Positions 6,938 to 62,351 of a stretch of 64,000 bases of DNA are shown here, one piece after another (the stretch's first letter is position 1; each line of letters starts with the position of its first letter). The notes beneath the pieces were generated by a model. The model made no database searches. It was not told the origin of the DNA and saw only the letters and a list, made by a program, of their open reading frames with translations. The DNA comes from Octopus sinensis (lineage: Eukaryota), in NCBI RefSeq assembly GCF_006345805.1, contig NC_043002.1:72354001-72418000 (forward strand). Direction: 5' to 3'. The position numbers and the translations under genes were made by a program.

Positions 6938-7796
6938 CACACACACATACACGCACACACACATACACGCACGCATACACACACATATATAAGGAGCTAT
7001 CTGCAGACTACTAAATATAAGATGAGTTCAATATAGCTTTTTTTAAAAAATTAATTGAAATTACAAACAATGCTAATGCGGAAAAAAATCTCATTAGCGT
7101 TAATAAGAATGCAGACAATATCCGATATTTCGATGAACTAGACATTGAATTTTTACTAGTGATATGTAGTGAGTGGCGGGTGGGTATATTTTGTAACCAT
7201 GGTAACAAACCTGTGTATGTTTCGCTCTTTTGGATCTCTTGGGTGAAGTATTGGTCATTCAACGAAATCCAGGATCTCAGAAAGACTAACTGAAGTTTGT
7301 GCGAGTGTGTGTGCGTACGTGTGTATGTGAGGATGAGGCGAATTATAATAATGATGACAAATTTTGCCACAAGACCAGCAATATTAAGGGAAGAATAAGT
7401 CGATTACATAGACCACAGTGCTCAACTGGTACTTATTTTATCAACTCAGAAAGGATGAAAGACAGAGCCAACCTCGGTGGAATTTGAACCCCGAATGTAA
7501 AGAACAGGAAAAAATTCCGCTAAGCGTTTAGTCTGACTTGCTAATGATTCTGCCAGCTCGTTACCAGAGTCATTAGCAAGTCAGACTGCCGAAATGTTCC
7601 CCGACTACTTACTGAATACAAACATATAGTTCAGTGTCGGTTACCATAGCTAACGTAATGAGCTGAATATTGTTTCTGACTAATTAAAATCATGACCTAA
7701 ATAAGTATATTTACATATGCACATTGATATATTAGAATATACATATACAACCTGTGCTTTTTTTATTCTTCACACAACTTTTACACTGTGGAAGAC

Positions 7797-7864
7797 TCCC
7801 TTCATCAGCTGTTGACAGATCACACTGCGGTTTCGGGACTTTTCGACATGATCGTCCTTCAGTG
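7797..7864 (-). ncRNA. degenerate hammerhead-like motif, permuted strand order
   Basis: CACUG..CGAU-C/AUGUCG-aaaag-UCCC-GAAACCG-CAGUG..CAACAG-CUGAUGA-A-GGGA. Confidence 0.45.
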
Positions 7865-8346
7865 GTGCCGAGTAACCATGATACTTTCAAGGAATATCTG
7901 CGTTGTTTTGGCCTACACTATATTAAGCAGTGGTTTCTTTCGTTCTCTTGTTATTCATGACACCACCTCACCAAACCAGATGTAGCGCAAACAACCCCAA
8001 CAAGGTCATTACTGTTTTGTTTTACTATTCACAGGGTATTTTGTTTTCATTTTCGCTCATTCTCTCAGATGACTGTGAAGTATTCTAATACATATGAAAG
8101 CATATGTATGATGTGATAATGTGAACATCTACATGGAACTGTAAAATATATATAGAACATTCCAGATGTTTAGTTTGTAGTATGTATACATGCACACATG
8201 TAGACACATGCAAACATTTGGATATGGACACACATACGTAAGTTAAAGCATACTAATTCACACACATAATAATGTGCATGAATGTAAACGTACATAGCGG
8301 CACATGTTCCTTCGTGGACACATACATACATACATACATACATACA

Positions 8347-9173: not shown

Positions 9174-9244
9174 AATATAAACTTACTTGGAAATGAATGC
9201 GTGACATTCAATTAAATAATAATAATATAAATAATAATAATATA

Positions 9245-9293
<49 letters not shown>

Positions 9294-9312
9294 ATATATA
9301 TATATGCATATA

Positions 9313-9735
9313 TGGATACAGGACGTCACCAACTGTGTAAACAACATGAAAAACAAAAACAAACGAGTTAAATACGCAAGCAACAGGAGAAAAAATAAGA
9401 AAACAAGACAAGTAAACTCAGAGAAACGACCTTGCATCAGTTGTCGGCTGTCTATCTACTCCTCATTTCGAGCATTCAACGACAATATGAGTCTTCAAAG
9501 ACTGTTACTCCCATAAATTTTAAAAGAAAATTTAAGATTTATGGAGGGTCTGAGATGGGAACAAAAACAGGATGGTGGAGACATACAAGGAAACCGAACG
9601 AAAACAAAGATGGAGGGTCGTTAGACCAGAACAAGAAGAAAATAATGAAAGGTGGGAGAAATATTTTCTTTGAAAAGAGAAAAGATAGAAGAGAGAGAGA
9701 AAACAAATGGTTCAGTCCTTTGAAGGTCTATGCAT
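9313..9735 (-). mobile_element. (TA)n-embedded non-autonomous element (probably Penelope-derived) with permuted HHR-like motif at 9430-9491
   Basis: Bounded by (TA)n on both sides; a homologous inverted copy lies at about 25530-26012. Confidence 0.6.
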
Positions 9736-19149: not shown

Positions 19150-20380
19150 TTTCTACTCTAGGCACAAGGCCCGAAATTTTGGGGGAGGGGCCAGTCGATT
19201 AGATCGACCCCACTACGCAACTGGTACATAATTTATCGACCCCAAAAGGATGAACAGTAAAGTCAACATGGCGGAATTTGAACTCAGAATGTAAAGACAG
19301 ACGAAATACCGCTAAGCATTTCGCCCGGCGTGCTAAAGTTTCTTATTTATTTATTGCCCTCAAGGGGCTAAACATAGAGCGTCAAACAAGGACAGACAAA
19401 GTAATCAAGTCGATTACATCGACCCCAGTGCGTAACTGGTACTTAATTTATCGACCCCGAAAGGATGAAAGGCAAAATCGACCTCGGTGGAATTTGAACT
19501 CAGAACGTAACGGCAGACGAAATACCGCTAAGCATTTCGCCCGGCGTGCTAAAGTTTCTTATTTCTTTATTGCCCTCAAGGGGCTAAACATAGAGGGTCA
19601 AACAAGGACAGACAAAGTAATCAAGTCGATTACATCGACCCCAGTGCGTAACTGGTACTTAATTTATCGAACCCGAAAGGATGAAAGGCAAAATCGACCT
19701 CGGTGGAATTTGAACACAGAACGTAACGGCAGACGAAATACCGCTAAGCATTTCGCCCGGCGTGCTAACGATTCTGCCGCCTTTAAAAGTAATAATTATG
19801 GCTACTCTAGGCAAAAGCCCTTGAAAATTTTGAGGGAAGGGGACTAGTCGATTACATCGACTCCTGTGCGCAACTAGTACTTATTTAATCGACCCTGAAA
19901 GGATGAAAGGCAAAGTCGACCTCGGCGGAATTTGAAACCAGAGCGAAGCGGCAAACGAAATACCTATTTCTTTACTACCAACAAGGGGCTAAACACAGAG
20001 AGGACAAACAAGGACAGACAAACGGATTAAGTCGATTATATCGACCCCAGTGCGTAACTGGTACTTATTTAATCGACCCCGAAAGGATGAAAGGCAAAGT
20101 CGACCTCGGCGGAATTTGAACTCAGAACGTAGCGGCAGACGAAATACCTATTTCTTTACTACCCACAAGGGGCTAAACACAGAGAGGACAAACAAGGACA
20201 GACAAACGGGTTAAGTCGATCACATCGACCTCAGTGCGTAACTGATACTTATTTAATCGACCCCGAAAGGATGAAAGGCAAAGTCGACCTCGGCGGAATT
20301 TGAACTCAGAACGTAGCGGCAGACGAAATACCGCTAAGCATTTCACCCGGCGTGCTAACGCTTCTGCCAGCTCGCCGCCT
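19150..20380 (-). mobile_element. tandem array of six tRNA-derived SINE family A units (Meta-domain-like centre)
   Basis: Head GGCGGCGAGCTGGCAGAA, box B GAGTTCAAATTCC, centre GCCTTTCATCCTTTCGGGGTCGATAAATTAAGTACCAG. Other copies at about 7360-7560, 12695-12860, 14416-14570, 17840-17990, 27050-27240, 40255-40485, 41997-42213, 42907-43147, 50237-50467, 58005-58505, 59160-59560 and 63080-63420. Confidence 0.9.
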
Positions 20381-25530: not shown

Positions 25531-26021
25531 CTGCTCTATCTTCCTCCCCCTCTTTCTTTATCGCTCTCTCTCTCATTGCTTACACGTGATCATCGTCCAT
25601 CTTTCTTTTCCTCACGTGACCATCTTTCTTTTCTTGCTCGGACGTTCTAAGGACTGGACGTCTTCTATCTCTCTCTTCCATTTTTTCTCTTCTCAAAGAA
25701 AATATTTCTTCCAACGTTCGCTATCTTTACCCTCGTTCTGGTCTAACGACCCTCCATGTTTGTTTTCGTTCGGTTTCCTTGTATGTCTCTAATGTCCTGT
25801 TTTTGTTCCCAACTTTGACCCTCCATAAAATCCAAAATTTATTTTGGAAGTTATGGGAGCAACTGTCTTCGAAGATTCATATTGTCGTTCAATGCTCGAA
25901 ATAATGAGTAGATAGACAGCCGACAACTGATGTAAGGTCGTTCTTTTCTATTCTTTTCTCTCGTTGTTTGCGTATTTCATGCTGTTTACTGTTGGTGACG
26001 TCCTGTACCCAAATATACATA

Positions 26022-26073
<52 letters not shown>

Positions 26074-26290: not shown

Positions 26291-27384
26291 TAGATACACA
26301 CACATATACATACATACATGCATATATATATTATGGTCGAAATTTACAGAAAAACAAAAGACGAAGGCAGGTGTATGAACAACAGGCAGGTGTATTAGTT
26401 TGACGCTCGGGAAAGTGAGAAAGTCTTCTACGTTTCGAGCCTACGCTCTTCAACAGAAAGGGATAAGAAAAAATAAACAGAAAGAGAATAAAAAAACGAG
26501 TTCTGTCTATTTACTTTTGAGATGAATGCGTGTGAATGGTTTATGTTTGTGTAAATGTATGCAATACACACAAACACACACACATACACACACACATCTA
26601 TATATATCACATTATAACATCGTGTGTGGCTATGTATACCTGAGTTTTTGTGGTTCTGTGCGGTGAATGTGTGTATACTCACATATATAATCAAAGATTT
26701 TTCGATACCAGCACATTCAACCCTTCTCCGTTTTGAGAGAAAAGGACGCCGTGCCTTGTGCCCCATTATCCTTTGTACTGCGTAATGTTTCTAATTCAGT
26801 GAGAAACAGGCAAACAGGCACGCACACAGAAAGCTAGACAGGCAGGCAGACAGGCAGGCAAGCAGACAGGCAGGCAGGCAGACAGGCAGACAGGCATTTA
26901 GTGAGCTCCAGCACTTCATTAGTACTTTATTTATCGATACCTTCGAAGTAAAAAATGGCAATGGGGACCTCGTTGGAATTTGAAATCAGAACGCAAAGAC
27001 CCGGAAATAATACGGCGAGGATTCTATACGACGTTCTAACGACATAGAGGGGAAAAACAAGGACAGGCAAATGGATTAAGTCGAATACATCGACCCCAGT
27101 GCGTAACTAGTACTTAATTTATCGACCCCGAAAAGATGAAAGGCAAAGTCGACCTCGGCGGAATTTGAATTCAGAACGCAAAGACAGACGAAATACTGCT
27201 AAGAGTTTCGCCCAGCGTGCTAACAGTTCTACCAGCTCATAGCCTTTACAGCCATTTCTAATATTGCCTCACAATGATGAAGGAACATTACACTGACTGA
27301 GTACAAAAGTATGAAGGATTGTACTGATTTCGAATGAAATATAATTAAAAGTAATTGATAATGACCAAAAATTACGATCGTCAA

Positions 27385-33039: not shown

Positions 33040-33279
33040 TATTAATAGTTATCGCCAAGCTAAACTGGCAGTTCGGGAAAATAGGACGAATGCTGCTGTT
33101 GATTAGCTCTAAGAGGCCATCGCCTCTAGCTAGCTATGTGACACACGAACCTGTGTCCATTGTAACAGGTTCGTGTGTCACATAGCTAGCTAGAGGTGAT
33201 GGCCTCTTGGAGCTAATCAACGGCAGCATTCGTTCTATTTTCCTGGACTGCCATGTTAGCTTGGCAATAACTATTAATA
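33040..33279. repeat. long near-perfect palindrome
   Basis: 115-nt arms, 10-nt loop (33155-33164), 9 mismatches. Confidence 0.95.
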
Positions 33280-33981
33280 TCCAGTACCGCTATCGTAGTC
33301 TCCCTTATAGGGACTTAGAAATATTAATATTTCTATCAATAATTGTTATTGCTATCATAATTTCGAAAAGCAGCGAACTGGCAGAATCGTTAACACGTTG
33401 GGCAAAATGTTTACCGGCATTTCGTTCGTCTATACGTTGTGAGTTCAAATCTGGAAAGACGAAAGGCTGTCAAGCTGTGTTCAAATTGCACCCAGCTTGA
33501 CAGCCTTTCGTCTTTCCGGATTTGTTGAAATAAGTAACACACGGGTCGATGTAATCGGTTATCGTCACAAAAACACGCACACACACACACACAGATTTTT
33601 AGGTGTGTGGTTTAGAGGTTACGCTTAGGGGTATTGCATTCACGATTCTATACATATATATATATATATATATACACTGAAAAGTGCAAATTAATCTTTA
33701 TTAGATAGCACGAAATCTTAAAATATAGGATTATCCAAAATTTTTCAATCTTGCTCATTCCACCTTGGGTTATAGAACACATTTAGAGTAGATTGTAGGT
33801 ATTTGACATCTACTTCTAGCGTATAGGTTCTACATTCCAGCGCCCTTAATTATAATTATATTTTTATAATTGTATACTTAAAAATTAATTTTTACCGATA
33901 TAGTCGGTTTTTTTTTATATGTTAGCCACTGATATAAACATTTTAATGATTATATCTTCAATTTATAAGTGTATATATATA

Positions 33982-39095: not shown

Positions 39096-40655
39096 TATGA
39101 CTTTTTTTTTTCTGTCCCAAATAACTGAATTGGGTCTGTTATGCTTGCACTTGGCAGAAGCTTTTGATGGGATGCATAAGTATGTGTTCTTCTCTTTCGT
39201 TTTTTTTTTAAATTTAGTGTAAATCTTGACGGTCTCCGGCTTGGTAGCGAGATTGCGAAAGGAAAGCATCTTTTTTTGTTCATCATCCTTTAAATCTTAA
39301 GGGGGTCTTGCAGATTTTTGTAGTCTCAAATATCGTAATCATTTGTAGTGTATGGATTAAAGATACGCGTTCATTCTCCAAGAAGACAAGTTCAGCCATA
39401 CTTTGCTCCAGCTGGGTTGGTATGTCTTCTGTTGGTATGAAGATGAAAGTGTATGTATGTATATGTATGTGTGTATGTATGTATGTATGTATGTATGTAT
39501 GTATGTATGTATGTATGTATGGGTGCCTGTGGGTGTATGTATGTGTGTGTGTATGTATGTACGAATGTACGTATGTATGTTCGCATGTATGCATGAATGG
39601 ATGAATTGATGGATGGATGGTTGGTAGGATGGTTGGATCGATAAGGATACGTGTACTTTCTCTCTGACTTCCATCAAACGTTACGAGTGTCAAGAGCATT
39701 AGTACTAACATAGTCATAATATATAAATGAATTTATTCTTCTATAATTTTTTTAAACAACAAAAAAAAAGATAGCTTCTTCTTTAGCGCATGCGTACTCT
39801 CTCCATCCTGCTTCTTAAAACCTCGCCCAAAGAACTCTGTTCTCTTGGGACATCATAAATTATTCTCCTCAGTACAATGTTTGTTTTAATAGTTAAAACA
39901 TCGCTTGAACATCCAATATCGTTTTACCGTTGCTTGCTGAATTTGTGCATCTGTCGACGTTAGAGCTTCTGCGTTGTTGCTACACCTGCTAGACATAGCA
40001 GTAATCTCACCCTTTAAAAAGATACATAGGTTTATGTAGTCTGAGGGACACTATGACAGCAATTAAGCAAGATATTTACGTATGGAATGCTTTTATTATA
40101 AGTCTGTTGATCGGAACAGACTCGAGAAGCTAGACAGCGACAACATCAGTACTGTCAACAAGAGTAACGGCAACAACAATAACAATAAAAATTACCAACA
40201 AAACATTTAGTAACTAAAGTACCAACAGCGTGCGTTATACATACGTATATATATATTTCTTTACTACCCACAAGGGGCTAAACACAGAGGGGACAAACAA
40301 GGACAGACAAACGGATTAAGTCGATTACATCGACTCCAGTGCGTAACTGGTACTTAATTTATCGACTCCGAAAGGATGAAAGGCAAAGTCGACCTCTGCG
40401 GAATTTGAACTCAGAATGTAGCGGCAGACAAAATACAGGTACGCATTTCGCCCGGCGTGCTAACGTTTCTGCCAGCTCGCCGCCTTTTATATATTATGCA
40501 TATACACACACTCACACACACATACATACATACATATACATACATACATACATACATACATACATACATGCATACATACATACATACATACTACATACAT
40601 ACATACATACATACATACACACGCACACACACATATATATATACGCACATGTATA

Positions 40656-41745: not shown

Positions 41746-44636
41746 TTGGGGATAGTCCAATATATGCAAATTTAAAAAGTGGGGGTGAAAAAAAAGAAAA
41801 CAACAAAGTTTTGGGACAATCCAATGCATGCAAATATAAAAGATGTGTGGGGGAATCGAACGAATTTTAGAGTCAGTCCAAAATATGCAAATAAAGGCAT
41901 ATACCCATATTATGTATCCCTGTAAAAATAGGTTGAACCACGGTGTTTTCAGAGCTTCAAATGAGGATTGAATCATTCAGTGGTACATTTCATTCTTTTG
42001 TTTTCTACTCTAGGCACAAGGCCCAAAATTTTGGGGGAGAGGACCAGTCGATTAGATCGACCCCAGTACGCAACTGGTACTCAATTTATCGACCCCCGAA
42101 AGGATGAATGGCAATGTCGACCTCGACGGAATTTGAACTCAGAACATGAGGGCAGACGAAATGCCGCTAAACATTTCGCCCGGCGTGCTAACGTTTCTGC
42201 TAGCTCGCCGCCTTAGTGGCACATTTCATTCTGCGAGTTCAATGTCACAGATTTTGTTTTTTGTCTTTCTTTGATTTTTATGTTTTTCCTCTGAAAACTA
42301 GATTGCATTTACCAATCATCCGAATAATATAAAATTTAATTTAATCTGAGCTGATGTAAATATGAAAATCACAGCAAATTGTGAACTTATAATTTTCAGA
42401 TCAATCTAGAGAGTTAATTTATAGCTGGCAATGTTTGGCTCAACCAGTTTATGCTTAAGTGCAAACCCCGCCGGATCGTCTGTTAAAATCTATTGGATCA
42501 ATAACATATGGAGTTTAATAAAATCGTCAGTGCTTTTTCACTAAAATTTGAGACTATATTAGAAATTATAGATTTCTATAAGTCAAGGCTCCAAGTCAAG
42601 GCGTATGGCTTAGTGGTTAGAGTGTTGGCTTAATAATTATAAGATTGTCGTTTCGATTGCTGGACTGGTTGATGCGTTGTATTCTGGAGCAAAACACTTC
42701 ATTTCAAGTTGGTCCAGTTCACTTAGCTGGTAAAAATGAATATTCCAGCAATGGACAGGTGTCCCATCCAAGTGGGAAATATATACGCCAGAGAAACCAG
42801 GGGACCGGCCCTACTCTCCCTGCGGATTAATGTAGACTAACCATCATTGGCGTGGGACCAATAAATTTCGGAGAAGAGTACAAACGGTTGCTTCTCAATC
42901 CTGGTAGGCGGCGAGCTGGCAGAAACGTTAGCGCGCCGGGCGAAATGCTTAGCGGTATTTCGTCTGCCGCTACTTTCTGAGTTCAAATTCCGCCGAGGTC
43001 AACTTTGTCTTTCATCCTTTCGGGGTCGATTAAATAAGTAACAGTTACGCACTGGGGTCGATATAATCGACTTAATCCGTTTGTCTGTCCTTGTTTGTCC
43101 TCTCTGTGTTTAGCCCCTTGTGGGCAGTAAAGAAATAGGTATTTCACTGATAACTTATTTTATTAGATAAAAAGCAAAAATCAACTGAGGAGGGATTTGA
43201 ACACGGGTTGTAAATGGATGCAATTAAATACAAATTCTCATGGCAATTTCTCTAACACTATCAAATCTGCCAACCCACGCTCGAGACTGGCATCATTTCA
43301 TATAATTATAATTTAAGCATTAGAGATAATTATTATTAAAAAAAAAGTGTTATTACAAATGAGTTCTTGTTTACTTCTAGGTCGTCCCTGATTAAGTTCA
43401 CTTATAACCAGATTTTTTCAACCATGACACGGTCACATCTTTCCTTTTTTTTTAGATTTGTTTATCTAAGGCAACATTGTCGTTTTTTTTTTTCTTTTTG
43501 TAAGATGTTAGACTGTTTTGCTTTTTTTTTTTTTTTTTGTAAGATGAAGACTTGTTATGCTATTTTTAGCAAGCTGAACGAGCGTGTAGACTCTTGATTA
43601 AATGCTTGCGGAAACGTTAGAAACAGTGGAATGTCTTCAGTTTCATCTCTCCACTAAATCAAACCGGAGAGAGATTTTTATCCGTTATCTCTTTGCAAAT
43701 ATTAATACATTCATGTCAGTTCAGTCGACTATACTCCTTGGTAAATTTTGATTCGTGCCTGACCAAAAGAAATCATTATTAATCCCAAGATAAGAGCTGT
43801 GGATTGGTGCTGGATAAGGGCAGTTTCGCAAGCAAACAAAATGCTTTGTCATATTTAGCGACACCACTTTACTATCTGAGATCAAATACCAACAAAATCG
43901 ACTTTGCTTGCCATTATTCTGTGGTCATATCAAATATTACTGGTCAAATATTGCGTTTGATTTAATCGATTACATTCTTCAGAGTATGTGGCTTTCAGCT
44001 TATCCAATTGATAAAGTACTGCGGAAAGCAGGATCAAGAAAAAAATTGACAAATTGCCTTAATTTCTTTCGTTATCTACCTTTATGTTCTGAACTCAAAT
44101 CTCAAAGACGTCAGCTTTGCTCATTCTTTTCGGATTCATAATATAAAAGAGTATGTGACTAAGAAGTTCACCTTGCAGCCCCGGAGTTCCCAGTTTCGTT
44201 CCGTTACACGGCACCTTGTGCAAGTGTCTTTCACCATAACCTGATTGTTGACTAGTACCTGGTGAGTGGAATTTGGTGACCAGAAACTGTACGAAAGCCC
44301 TAATAACATGTGTGCGCGCGCGTATATACAGATGTATTTACACACTCACACACACACACACACACATGAAAGAGAACCGGAAAATTAGTCCTTTTCAAAT
44401 GAAGTTCCTTGCAAATGAAGTTCCGAGCTTTAGATATTCCCTAATCCCTCTTCTTATAGAAAATGCAGTGCACCTTAAACTAGAGGTAGTCTGATGGAAA
44501 CCGGAAACCATCAACGCTCTTGTTCTGAAATTGCGCTTTAAAATAAAAAGAATTAAATAAGTACCAAAGTAGATTATACTTCTCCCTTAAAATGCGTGGT
44601 TTATGCCGCCTTAGTTTGAAATCGTTGTTGTTTTAA

Positions 44637-57968: not shown

Positions 57969-58793
57969 CACCACACATATATATATATATATTCTATAAA
58001 TAATCTTTTCTACTGTAAGCACAACTGGTACTTAATTTATCGATCTCGGCGGAATTTGAACTCAGAACGTAAAGACAGACGAGATACCTATTTCTTTACT
58101 ACCGACAAGGGGCTAAACACAGAGAAGACAAACAAGGACAGACAAACGGATTAAGTCGATTACATAGACCCCAGTGCGTAACTGGTACTTAATTTATCGA
58201 CCCGGATAAGGATGAAAGGCAAAGTCGACCTCGGCGGAATTTGGACTCATAACGTAGCGGCAGAGGAAAAACCTGTTTCTTTACTATCCACAAGGGGCTA
58301 AACACAGAGGGGTCAAACAAGGACAGACAAACGGATTAAGTCGATTATATCGACCCTAGTGCGTAATTGGTACTTATTTAATCAACTCCGAAAGGATGAA
58401 AGGCACAGTCGACCTCGACGGAATTTGAACTCAGAACGTAGCGGCTGACGAAATACTGCTAAGCATTTCGCCCGGCGTGCAAACGCTTCTGCCAGTTCGC
58501 CGCCTTATATTCTGTAAATAATAGCAATAATATTTTTATAAGCTTATAAGCGATCACCGAGCATAAGATTTAAGCTTATAAAAATATTATTGTTATTTAC
58601 AGAATTGTAAAAAAATCGACGCTTCTTACCAAAGACCGTCGCATATGTGTGTGTGTGTGTGTGTGTTGTGTGTGGTGTGTGTGTGTGTGTAATATTTAAT
58701 TTTAAAAAAATTATGTTATTTTAAATTCGTCTTCCACACACTCTCACCGACCTATATCCATATCTACTGTATGCACACACACACACACACACA

Positions 58794-60341: not shown

Positions 60342-60343
<2 letters not shown>

Positions 60344-60950
60344 TAAACAGTAAAAATAATTACAGACATGGACAAGAACATGAAACACCACAGAGACGAC
60401 ACAAGAACCACAGGACGGGACATTCGAAGCCCTCAGTCATCAGTCAAGAACCAGATCATCTTAGCAATTTCGGCTGATTAATCTTGAGATTGCTCCGATA
60501 TGGGCAGCCCGCCAAGGGAAATCTAAGCCAAGCGCATTAGATCCCCTGGAAGAAAGCTTCGAATGTATACAACACGAGGACGGAAAACGAACGAAGTACA
60601 CGAACAAAAATACAGAATACGTGACACCAATAAGAATACAAAAACGTAAAAACAATAACGGTAAAAATAAAAAACAAAACAAAACCAGGACGTAGGACAA
60701 GGGTCTTTCGACAGGACGAGTTGAGTATGGGGCTGGCTTGTGAAGTTGTGCCTAATGGCCGCAGGGAGACGAACAAATACGTGTTGCTTCGGCGACTGCT
60801 GGAACGAAAAGAGCGCTCAACAGCGGCTAGCGGTCACGTGAGAACAAAAGACAGGAGAAAGGGACAGATGGAAAGGGACAGATGAAAAGAGAGAGAAGGT
60901 GGACGAGGGAGGAGAAGAAAGAGACAGATCGAGGGGGCTGGAGGTGAGAG
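60342..60950 (-). mobile_element. (TA)n-embedded non-autonomous element with a structured RNA domain (60420-60566)
   Basis: Flanked by (TA)n; 11-bp closing stem plus internal helices and the hammerhead core strands. Confidence 0.6.
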
Positions 60951-62351
60951 AGATATATATATATATACATATATATTATATAAACATATGTATACACGCA
61001 GAGAGACACTTTCACATACACACATACACAAAGTAACATTTGTATTCCGTTCCGTGTATGATGGCTCCGCATCGAAATTGCTACTGAGATGGGTCACTGT
61101 TGTTGATATTTTAGTCCTCGTGTCAGACCACTTGGAGTCATCCTATAATTTAAGGCGTTCCAACCATGACCAACCGTTTTTTTTGTTTTTTTTTTTGTAT
61201 TTAGTGTTCAGACATCGAACACAACGTTATCTTTTCAAAAATTTAAGCATCATTTTCCCTGCGGCTATATTTAAGCTCTTCTTTAGCTTCTTCCAGATGT
61301 TTTTGTATTGGTTCTTTCCCTTTCGTTCCATATTATACAAAGTAATGCCACGTGGGTGAAAAGAAGCTTGAACGTTCCTATTTCCAAGTTCTTCAGCTGC
61401 GCAATATCCTTCCAGTTGACCAGTTCATATTGGTGGACACTTCAGATTTCGAAAGGCCGATCAGTCTACTCTTTCTACTACTACTATATTTTTATAAGGA
61501 AAGCAGTGCCCAAGGTCCCTTAAGAGGACATTCGAGACTAGATGGAGAAGAGGGAACCCTTAAACGGGAAACCTAGCTCGAATGCTTGCAATCGAATGGA
61601 TTCCATTAGAGCGGGTAGTGGTGTTAAACAGGGCGACGGACAACGTGTACCACCCAACAAGGCCAAGGAGTCTGAACAAAAACTGATTAAATTTGATCCG
61701 ACGTTCTAACAACTCCATCAACCAACCACCATAAGTTGGTATATCGTTATCGAATTGAGCCTGAAAGGATGTAAAGCAAGAAAGAAAAATGAAAAGAAAC
61801 ACGAGACTTGAACTCAGAGTCTCTCTTCCCCTATATAAATATATATATATATAAGAAGTTTTAACCGACACTTTAACAACCCGGCTAATTCACCACCTCG
61901 TTTCAGGGCGATAAAGTAAATTTGATCTGCTATTTTAGTTCCCAAACTTAATAACTGCCGTGATGCATATGATTTTTATAGACAATATACAATTACATTT
62001 AGTTGTTTAATTGGAGTTCATGTTGTTATATTTCGCACCACTAAAATGTTGTAAATCTTTAAATACCAGTATCGGCAGATTAGCTGTAACGCTGTTTTCC
62101 TATCTTTTGTAATTAATCCGCTATTCTATAGACATTCTTGGCCCGACTCCAGATTCCAGATACTATATTTCTATTTTATAGCTACAGTAAAATAAATAAA
62201 TAAATAAATAAATAGATAAATAAATAAAGTTAAAAACTAAGGTGAAAGCTTTCAAAAATATATATATTAGATTAAGTAGTCTTGACGATTTAGATTGAAA
62301 ACCGAACTCTTTAAATGAATTAGGGATTTACTTCGAGATCGACCACTGGCT

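Follow-up and report, generated by a model that had tools for sequence, protein, structure and literature searches.

Hammerhead ribozymes with a shuffled order of strands have been described as types SGC (HRIMA-1 and its variants) and CSG (Eckert et al. 2023, PMC10085705), in which the blocks S, G and C follow one another in cyclic order and carry the CUGAnGA, GAAA and UH-site elements that were also identified in this study. In the accessible part of that report, type SGC is without representatives in known genomes, type CSG is known so far from two metagenomic sequences, the block of CUGAnGA and stem II is taken as uninterruptible, and an extra helix of SGC bridges the outer ends of stems I and II, similar to helix P described below. 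According to the available part of PMC3705267, the CChMVd (+) hammerhead tolerates one extra residue (A10) between A9 and G10.1; the variants A10C and A10G of this insertion are detrimental. In the pseudoknot hammerhead (Zhan et al. 2024, PMC11300833, in its available part), helix II is formed by long-range pairing, with the stem-loop connectivity of Pistol.

Among mobile elements, the minimal type I hammerheads of Penelope-like elements (PLE) and the non-LTR retrozymes, which are pLTR-derived tandem repeats that carry a hammerhead and have no coding capacity, have been described in the sections available of PMC4209133 and bioRxiv 10.64898/2026.07.22.740005. The Penelope-like Naiads are, according to the part of Craig et al. 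(2021, PMC8557442) at hand, without a canonical hammerhead, and the same source marks 10 'HHR_core' and 8 'HHR_half_core' entries, Naiad_Ovul among these. Within the literature searched (open papers, with the Eckert paper and the preprint taken without supplements), no account was found of a backbone exit between A9 and G10.1, of a core-opened wiring or of a Naiad hammerhead, and the words 'SGC' and 'pseudoknot' are absent from the main text of the 2026 retrozyme preprint as available.

We analysed a 64,000-nt window of the Octopus sinensis genome (2.72 Gb, rich in microsatellites). At 9306-9734 of its minus strand lies a member of a Penelope-like repeat without coding capacity, herewith designated family A; this copy is truncated at its 5' end, retains unit positions 230-653 and is inserted in (TA)n. 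With a probability of roughly 0.78, we interpret this locus as the decayed copy of a predicted self-cleaving hammerhead in which the strand order is shuffled and the core is interrupted between A9 and G10.1; the motif occupies the 3' end of a non-coding repeat, which a Penelope-like, probably Naiad, reverse transcriptase (RT) is likely to mobilise. The initial annotation had taken the element for one of about 420 bp, a size that was too small, the unit being about 650 nt long. Past the 3' (TA)n, the first 49 nt of the unit are repeated at 9174-9222 (minus strand), a 'tail' that is a hallmark of Penelope-like insertion.

Re-reading of the minus strand from 9491 to 9430 gave the order CUCAU, A, UUGUCG, a 10-nt link, GAA-AUGAG, a 15-nt link, CGACAA, CUGAUGC and AAGG, exactly as annotated at first; the 5 bp of helix III and the 6 bp of helix I are Watson-Crick pairs throughout, the 10-nt link has the same length as that at 60433, and the reading as a permuted hammerhead is borne out, the permutation being non-circular. 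The extent proposed at first, 9430-9491, is included in the structure, the whole of which spans 9428-9550. On the minus strand and in RNA order, it starts with the 5' strand of helix IV (GACCCU, 9545-9550), followed without gaps by hairpin V (9511-9544) and the 5' strand of helix II (9506-9510), of which the first base is G10.1 and which reads GAGUA here and GAGCA in the family. Then come the 5' strand of helix P, a bridge between stems I and II (9499-9504), a helix III strand ending in U16.1 (9487-9491) and A17 (9486), 3' of which the cut is predicted by analogy with the hammerhead core (9485-9486). The helix I strand 3' of the predicted cut (9480-9485) is followed by the 3' strand of helix II (UGCUC), GAA and the helix III strand from A15.1 onward (9462-9474), the 3' strand of helix P (9448-9453, with one mismatch to its partner in this copy), the second helix I strand with the core CUGAUGC (9434-9446) and the 3' strand of helix IV, immediately 3' of position 9 (9428-9433, again with one mismatch in this copy). 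It turned clear that helix II had been judged weak at first because the wrong strand had been paired; the true 5' strand lies upstream, at 9506-9510.

The deviation at position 9 is real, and it is a substitution of A by C rather than the one-base insertion that had been considered as an alternative. In family A this position is A in 28 of 31 aligned copies, and the two copies of the window carry C and U; the odd core is therefore a trait of the decayed window copy and not of the family. The consensus check proposed at the outset (CUGAnGA versus CUGAUGY) gave CUGAUGA as the family A majority, and the consensus, for which the lack of a closable helix II or of a catalytic core had been named as grounds for giving up the fold, has both. 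At 9434 the family letter was dominant in the contigs of all four sequencing runs examined, which were presumed to be RNA and contain family A sequence; from such contigs strand, ends and expression cannot be read. The window copy is thus a decayed member of its family, C9 as well as the mismatches in helices IV and P being decay, and as a ribozyme it is likely slow or dead.

The window carries a second family A copy on the plus strand (25544-26024, ribozyme at about 25817-25939), which is also decayed, with U at position 9 and two breaks in helix III. A member of the young family B lies on the minus strand at 60420-60566, within a copy of about 60343-60955, and shows the same architecture with an intact core, so that the structural comparison suggested with 60433 held good. 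The same suggestion for 7797 did not: as a third intact family this candidate was rejected, as it fails the descriptor described below, has only 2 genome matches and contains no pairable cleavage block. The minus strand there, at 7790-7900 (L057), carries CUGAUGA, GAAA and a possible upstream helix II plus helix P, with the pairable cleavage block absent; it looks like an old damaged relative and has one 70% genome match.

For a comparison of the fold between repeats, we used six families: A (31 copies), A2 (15), B (25), F (15), I (15) and N (20), all taken as best matches except that N was picked by a pattern containing the core. A is related to A2 and B to F, so the six are not independent. 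The hammerhead core, C3 U4 G5 A6 G8 A9, G12 A13 A14, the pair A15.1-U16.1 and H17, is the majority in all six families (in N by choice), and all 11 core positions are intact in 25/25 copies of B and 16/31 of A, though not in the window copy with its A9C. Helix III measures 4-6 bp and helix I 6-7 bp in the family majorities. Replacement of helix sequences between families was called at the outset the strongest argument for the fold; it remains the best one and is now seen in six families, which have the layout in common and largely different sequences. Between A and A2, pairs are swapped in III, I, P and V with the pairing kept; double changes inside families are rare.

The strand that forms helix II distinguishes these families from type SGC as described. 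The upstream strand, at a distance of 18-25 nt 5' of U16.1, forms 5-6 Watson-Crick bp with the strand preceding GAAA in A, A2, B, F and N, and in these five of the six families the first pair is always G-C. Shuffling gave P values of 0.019 (A), 0.018 (A2), 0.052 (B), 0.026 (F), 0.001 (N) and 0.75 (I), and partners swapped between families formed only 2-4 bp, the A/A2 pair excepted. Helix II of family I falls within a poly-G run; out of 13 parsed copies, 3 formed 5 bp and 10 formed 3 bp. Helices I, II and III are accordingly all present round a core with G10.1-C11.1 when the upstream strand is used, in part only for family I.

An SGC hammerhead of the plain kind, in which helix II would join the strand that follows CUGAUGA and one extra A to the strand that precedes GAAA, the upstream helices being incidental, was our first reading, and it failed in four families for want of post-core pairing; such pairing was also poor in most of the other pattern matches. 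Complete pairing of the post-core strand with the pre-GAAA strand, which the initial annotation had also taken as helix II, was found in 0/25 copies of B, 0/15 of F, 0/20 of N and 0/15 of I. This arrangement draws on the validated SGC ribozymes (PMC10085705, in the part available) and on the family A majority, which permits 4 pairs (G-C, G-U, G-C and U-G, thus two G-U), complete in 20/31 copies of A and 13/15 of A2; against it, the same post-core strand makes 6-7 bp of helix IV instead, and the upstream helix II has 5 Watson-Crick bp. Among 11 decayed singletons with a cleavage block, the upstream helix II was found in 9 and the downstream one in 5, a modest separation. We consider the plain SGC form very improbable. 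The order of cleavage, GAAA and CUGAnGA blocks in our families is that of SGC, but a helix II strand within 1-2 nt after CUGAnGA occurs only as the weak alternative in A and A2. In type SGC, as far as the available text describes it, CUGAnGA is contiguous with stem II; in the fold preferred here the helix II strand is located upstream of all the blocks, and helices IV and V are inserted between A9 and G10.1, where the chain appears from the modelled pairing to be opened. Compared with the insertion of the CChMVd hammerhead at the same place, given as a single nucleotide in the part of PMC3705267 available, the strand here would leave the core and return with two helices, and compared with the pseudoknot hammerhead, as covered by the accessible part of PMC11300833, the order of strands is another. 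What is probably new is therefore this core-opened wiring, a variant of the SGC ring order with a broken block C.

Helix IV, one of the two extra helices, joins the bases 3' of A9 to a more distant upstream strand over 6-15 bp; in N it is weak, set by hand and fully paired in 1/20 copies. Helix IV is poorly separated from swaps, partners from other families also reaching 5-6 bp. Hairpin V sits between IV and II; it abuts both without a gap in A, A2, N and I, and is set off from each by 1 nt in F and by 2 nt in B. Helix P links the II-III linker to the III-I linker, with 5-7 bp in A, A2, F, I and N and an unbroken run of 3 bp in B. The helices are short, and folding of single strands is unexceptional (z of -1.9, -1.0 and -0.9), as would be expected of a chance resemblance within an AT-rich repeat. 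We regard this explanation as negligible: a descriptor with at least 4 Watson-Crick pairs in each of helices III and I and a loose core matched the window twice (9491 and 60494) and gave 0 matches in each of 30 block shuffles, the pattern of a G block followed by a C block has 8195 matches in the genome against 353 for the reversed control (23-fold), and six helices recur in fixed order in six families. Among 40 diverse matches to this pattern, the cleavage block was present in only 11, the remaining 29 being partly truncated or inverted copies and partly other repeats or chance, and an ORF directly upstream was present in none. In the Rfam search, the 150 of 262 matches listed (E up to 10) contained no hammerhead model, only microsatellite-driven miRNA noise; a permuted order is not expected to match.

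The repeats carrying the fold have the form of Penelope-like insertions. The genome search with 411 bases round the family A motif yielded 4579 candidates, of which 40 were scored with 84-88% identity; the unit has no ORF, a fixed 3' end at (TA)n and variable 5' truncation. Within 55 family A loci, a tail (the first 36-49 nt of the unit past the 3' end) was found in 11, an inverted 5' arm in 10 and a partial tandem in 2. Family B is younger (95-98% identity, 1720 candidates, 770-nt unit), with partial tandems in 20/40 loci (two of the 20 being one array), and no ORF was found upstream of A or B. The hallmarks of Penelope-like inserts, according to the part of PMC8557442 available, are (TA)n targets, pLTR tandems, inverted arms and tails. 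With fixed 3' end, 5' truncation, tandems, inverted arm, tail and no ORF, family A thus has the features of a non-autonomous Penelope-like element. The predicted ribozymes described here differ from the hammerheads of PLE and retrozymes, which in the available sections of PMC4209133 and the 2026 preprint are of type I with a helix III of 1-2 bp and act as dimers: helix III is 4-6 bp long in our families, their strand order is permuted, and a single unit should be able to fold by itself. The type I fold with minimal helix III that defines non-LTR retrozymes was found in none of these families.

Families A and B are likely copied by a Penelope-like RT, and this is probably the Naiad RT. A link to Naiads is seen in family N, which in 11/30 RT loci follows an RT of the same orientation at a distance of 1.1-1.4 kb; at one locus (L285), a peptide matching the published Naiad_Ovul/Obim linker is followed by the RT and then by the motif. 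The published 3' motif of octopus Naiad has 199 exact genome matches against 0 for the control. In a non-systematic reading by eye of published Naiad consensus files, covering 52 of the 62 occurrences of 'ctgatga' and 24 occurrences of three other core words, the full layout was seen in two octopus and three coral consensus records and in two further records, and partly in a squid record. The complete Naiad ORF (N-terminal GIY-YIG, CxC linker, C-terminal RT) is another matter: family A is without an ORF, no Naiad ORF was present in the first 20 N loci, a Neptune-type query found GIY-YIG in 0/7 extended family N RT loci, and the Naiad RT loci seen are broken. A 141-aa RT piece was not recognised by Pfam and is 30% identical to a Neptune-type RT. 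No sequence shared with families A and B was detected in the Naiad RT loci searched, the fold alone being in common, and downstream of divergent RT loci no A, B, F or I motif was found in sense orientation. Family A thus resembles Naiads, as described in the available part of Craig et al. (2021, PMC8557442), in (TA)n targets, tandems, inverted arms and tails, but is without their ORF or 3'-end homology.

The broken state of the Naiad RT loci beside a family B of 95-98% identity leaves room for another mobiliser of the same ribozyme, a younger Neptune-type Penelope element or a HERO LINE, in place of Naiad. A younger element with RT followed by GIY-YIG and a (TA)n end does exist in this genome (L222-L226). 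On the other side, the layout is common to the Naiad 3' end, the Neptune-type end carries by eye an ordinary minimal type I-like motif, and the tails and inverted arms match Penelope-like insertion and not a LINE. We hold this assignment to be unlikely, with a real residual chance, and retain Naiad as the probable source. As separate observations, L222-L226 (for instance G000:C10:78697600-78704600) represent a fairly young Neptune-type Penelope-like element with RT, cysteine finger, GIY-YIG and (TA)n end, the 3' end of which shows by eye a minimal type I hammerhead-like motif with altered core and palindromic helix III; and in four nematode Naiad consensus ends of PMC8557442, in the part inspected by eye, the blocks follow the order C-S-G without a split and helix P is long, which makes them type CSG.

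The positions at which inserts begin were examined as traces of cleavage. Breaks were counted by eye in the 40 nt 5' of a fixed anchor for the first 100 of 1035 B matches and the first 100 of 641 A matches, with windows chosen afterwards and internal deletions excluded (4 rows in B, about 8 in A). Family B gave 15 breaks, of which 10 lie within 8 nt downstream of the predicted cut (2 exactly there), 3 within 4 nt 5' of it and 2 in the other 28 nt; none falls at an ATAT site 10-13 nt upstream of the predicted cut. The pile-up has P of 1e-4, or 0.004 after removal of 7 breaks at a TA-like site and 0.08 in the strictest window, 7 of the 10 pile-up breaks being located at that TA-like site. Family A gave 18 breaks, 11 of them in 9 of the 40 positions (P of 5e-4, or 0.03 without 5 at the anchor edge). 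Inserts starting at or just 3' of the cut are expected if cut RNA serves as template. The enrichment of insert 5' ends just 3' of the predicted cut is new; it hints at cutting in vivo, with TA microhomology as a confounding factor. About 85 of 100 copies run through the predicted cut site, and therefore most templates were uncut or religated.

The latter number also suits the possibility that the fold is real and does not cleave alone, being a hammerhead-derived signal for RT binding or priming, or requiring the protein of the element for the cut. The opened core is without precedent, and in the accessible part of PMC11167929 the hammerhead of Anolis Poseidon cut only with protein, its cleavage was dispensable for insertion in vitro, and reads ending at the cut were none. 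This is nevertheless improbable, as the 11 catalytic and core positions and G10.1-C11.1 are kept across families with little helix sequence in common, and the breaks drop sharply 5' of the predicted cut, with none even at the ATAT site.

If the predicted ribozyme is active, the RNA would run in the order IV5', hairpin V, II5', P5', III, cut, I', II3', GAAA, III, P3', I, CUGAUGA and IV3', with helices IV, V and II stacked at a position that tolerates one extra residue. Cleavage would presumably follow the general acid-base chemistry of other hammerheads (PMC11300833, available part). Transcripts of tandem copies may be cut at the ribozyme, and the RT may prime at the (TA)n junction, which lies some 150-180 nt downstream of a cut; running off at the cut it would leave inserts starting there, and passing uncut or religated sites it would leave longer and tandem inserts. 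Circularisation is conceivable, a cycle of cutting and circularising having been proposed for non-LTR retrozymes (PMC4209133, part available).

A wider proposal, to which we incline with modest confidence, is that this is a seventh hammerhead wiring, with a core that parts between A9 and G10.1 and is closed by a stacked pair of helices, and that across animal phyla it is the hidden ribozyme of Naiads and of the non-coding elements that depend on them (the Naiads of nematodes keeping the unsplit CSG), a ribozyme which cuts in vivo and has left fossil inserts that start at the cut. If true, the rule that the block of CUGAnGA and stem II is uninterruptible would fall, non-circular permutations would shift from environmental RNA to thousands of animal genomic copies, the apparent absence of hammerheads in Naiads, which are among the most abundant invertebrate retroelements, would be explained, and the tolerated exit point in the core would be a new attachment site for engineered ribozymes. 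A predicted ribozyme competent as a monomer, a young family and an excess of inserts at the cut make the role of hammerheads in Penelope-like elements directly testable.

Several minor observations were made in parallel. Three family B copies (G000:C1:36189274, 48059194 and 48059929) represent a variant in which hairpin V is apparently deleted and tandems are still formed, a natural test of the need for V. One family A copy carries a duplication junction at the predicted cut (G000:C2:22532210-22532265), and in another (L017, G000:C24:15510043-15513445) an internal segment of about 75 nt is repeated about 5 times head to tail. L081, L092 and L093 belong to another family with GAAA followed by CUGAUGA, only about 18 nt from the (TA)n end, and the frequent repeats L061, L068, L070 and L076 have GAAA ahead of CUGAUGA and lack a cleavage block, with (AAT)n tracts in front of L061 and L068. 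In the window, two long perfect hairpins (33108-33211 and 33445-33525) score only as miRNA-model noise and are probably remnants of inverted repeats, and a dispersed repeat of 180-240 nt, with many copies of 85-97% identity and probably a SINE, was found at 19383-20380, 27042-27245, 40249-40485, 42906-43145 and 58266-58505.
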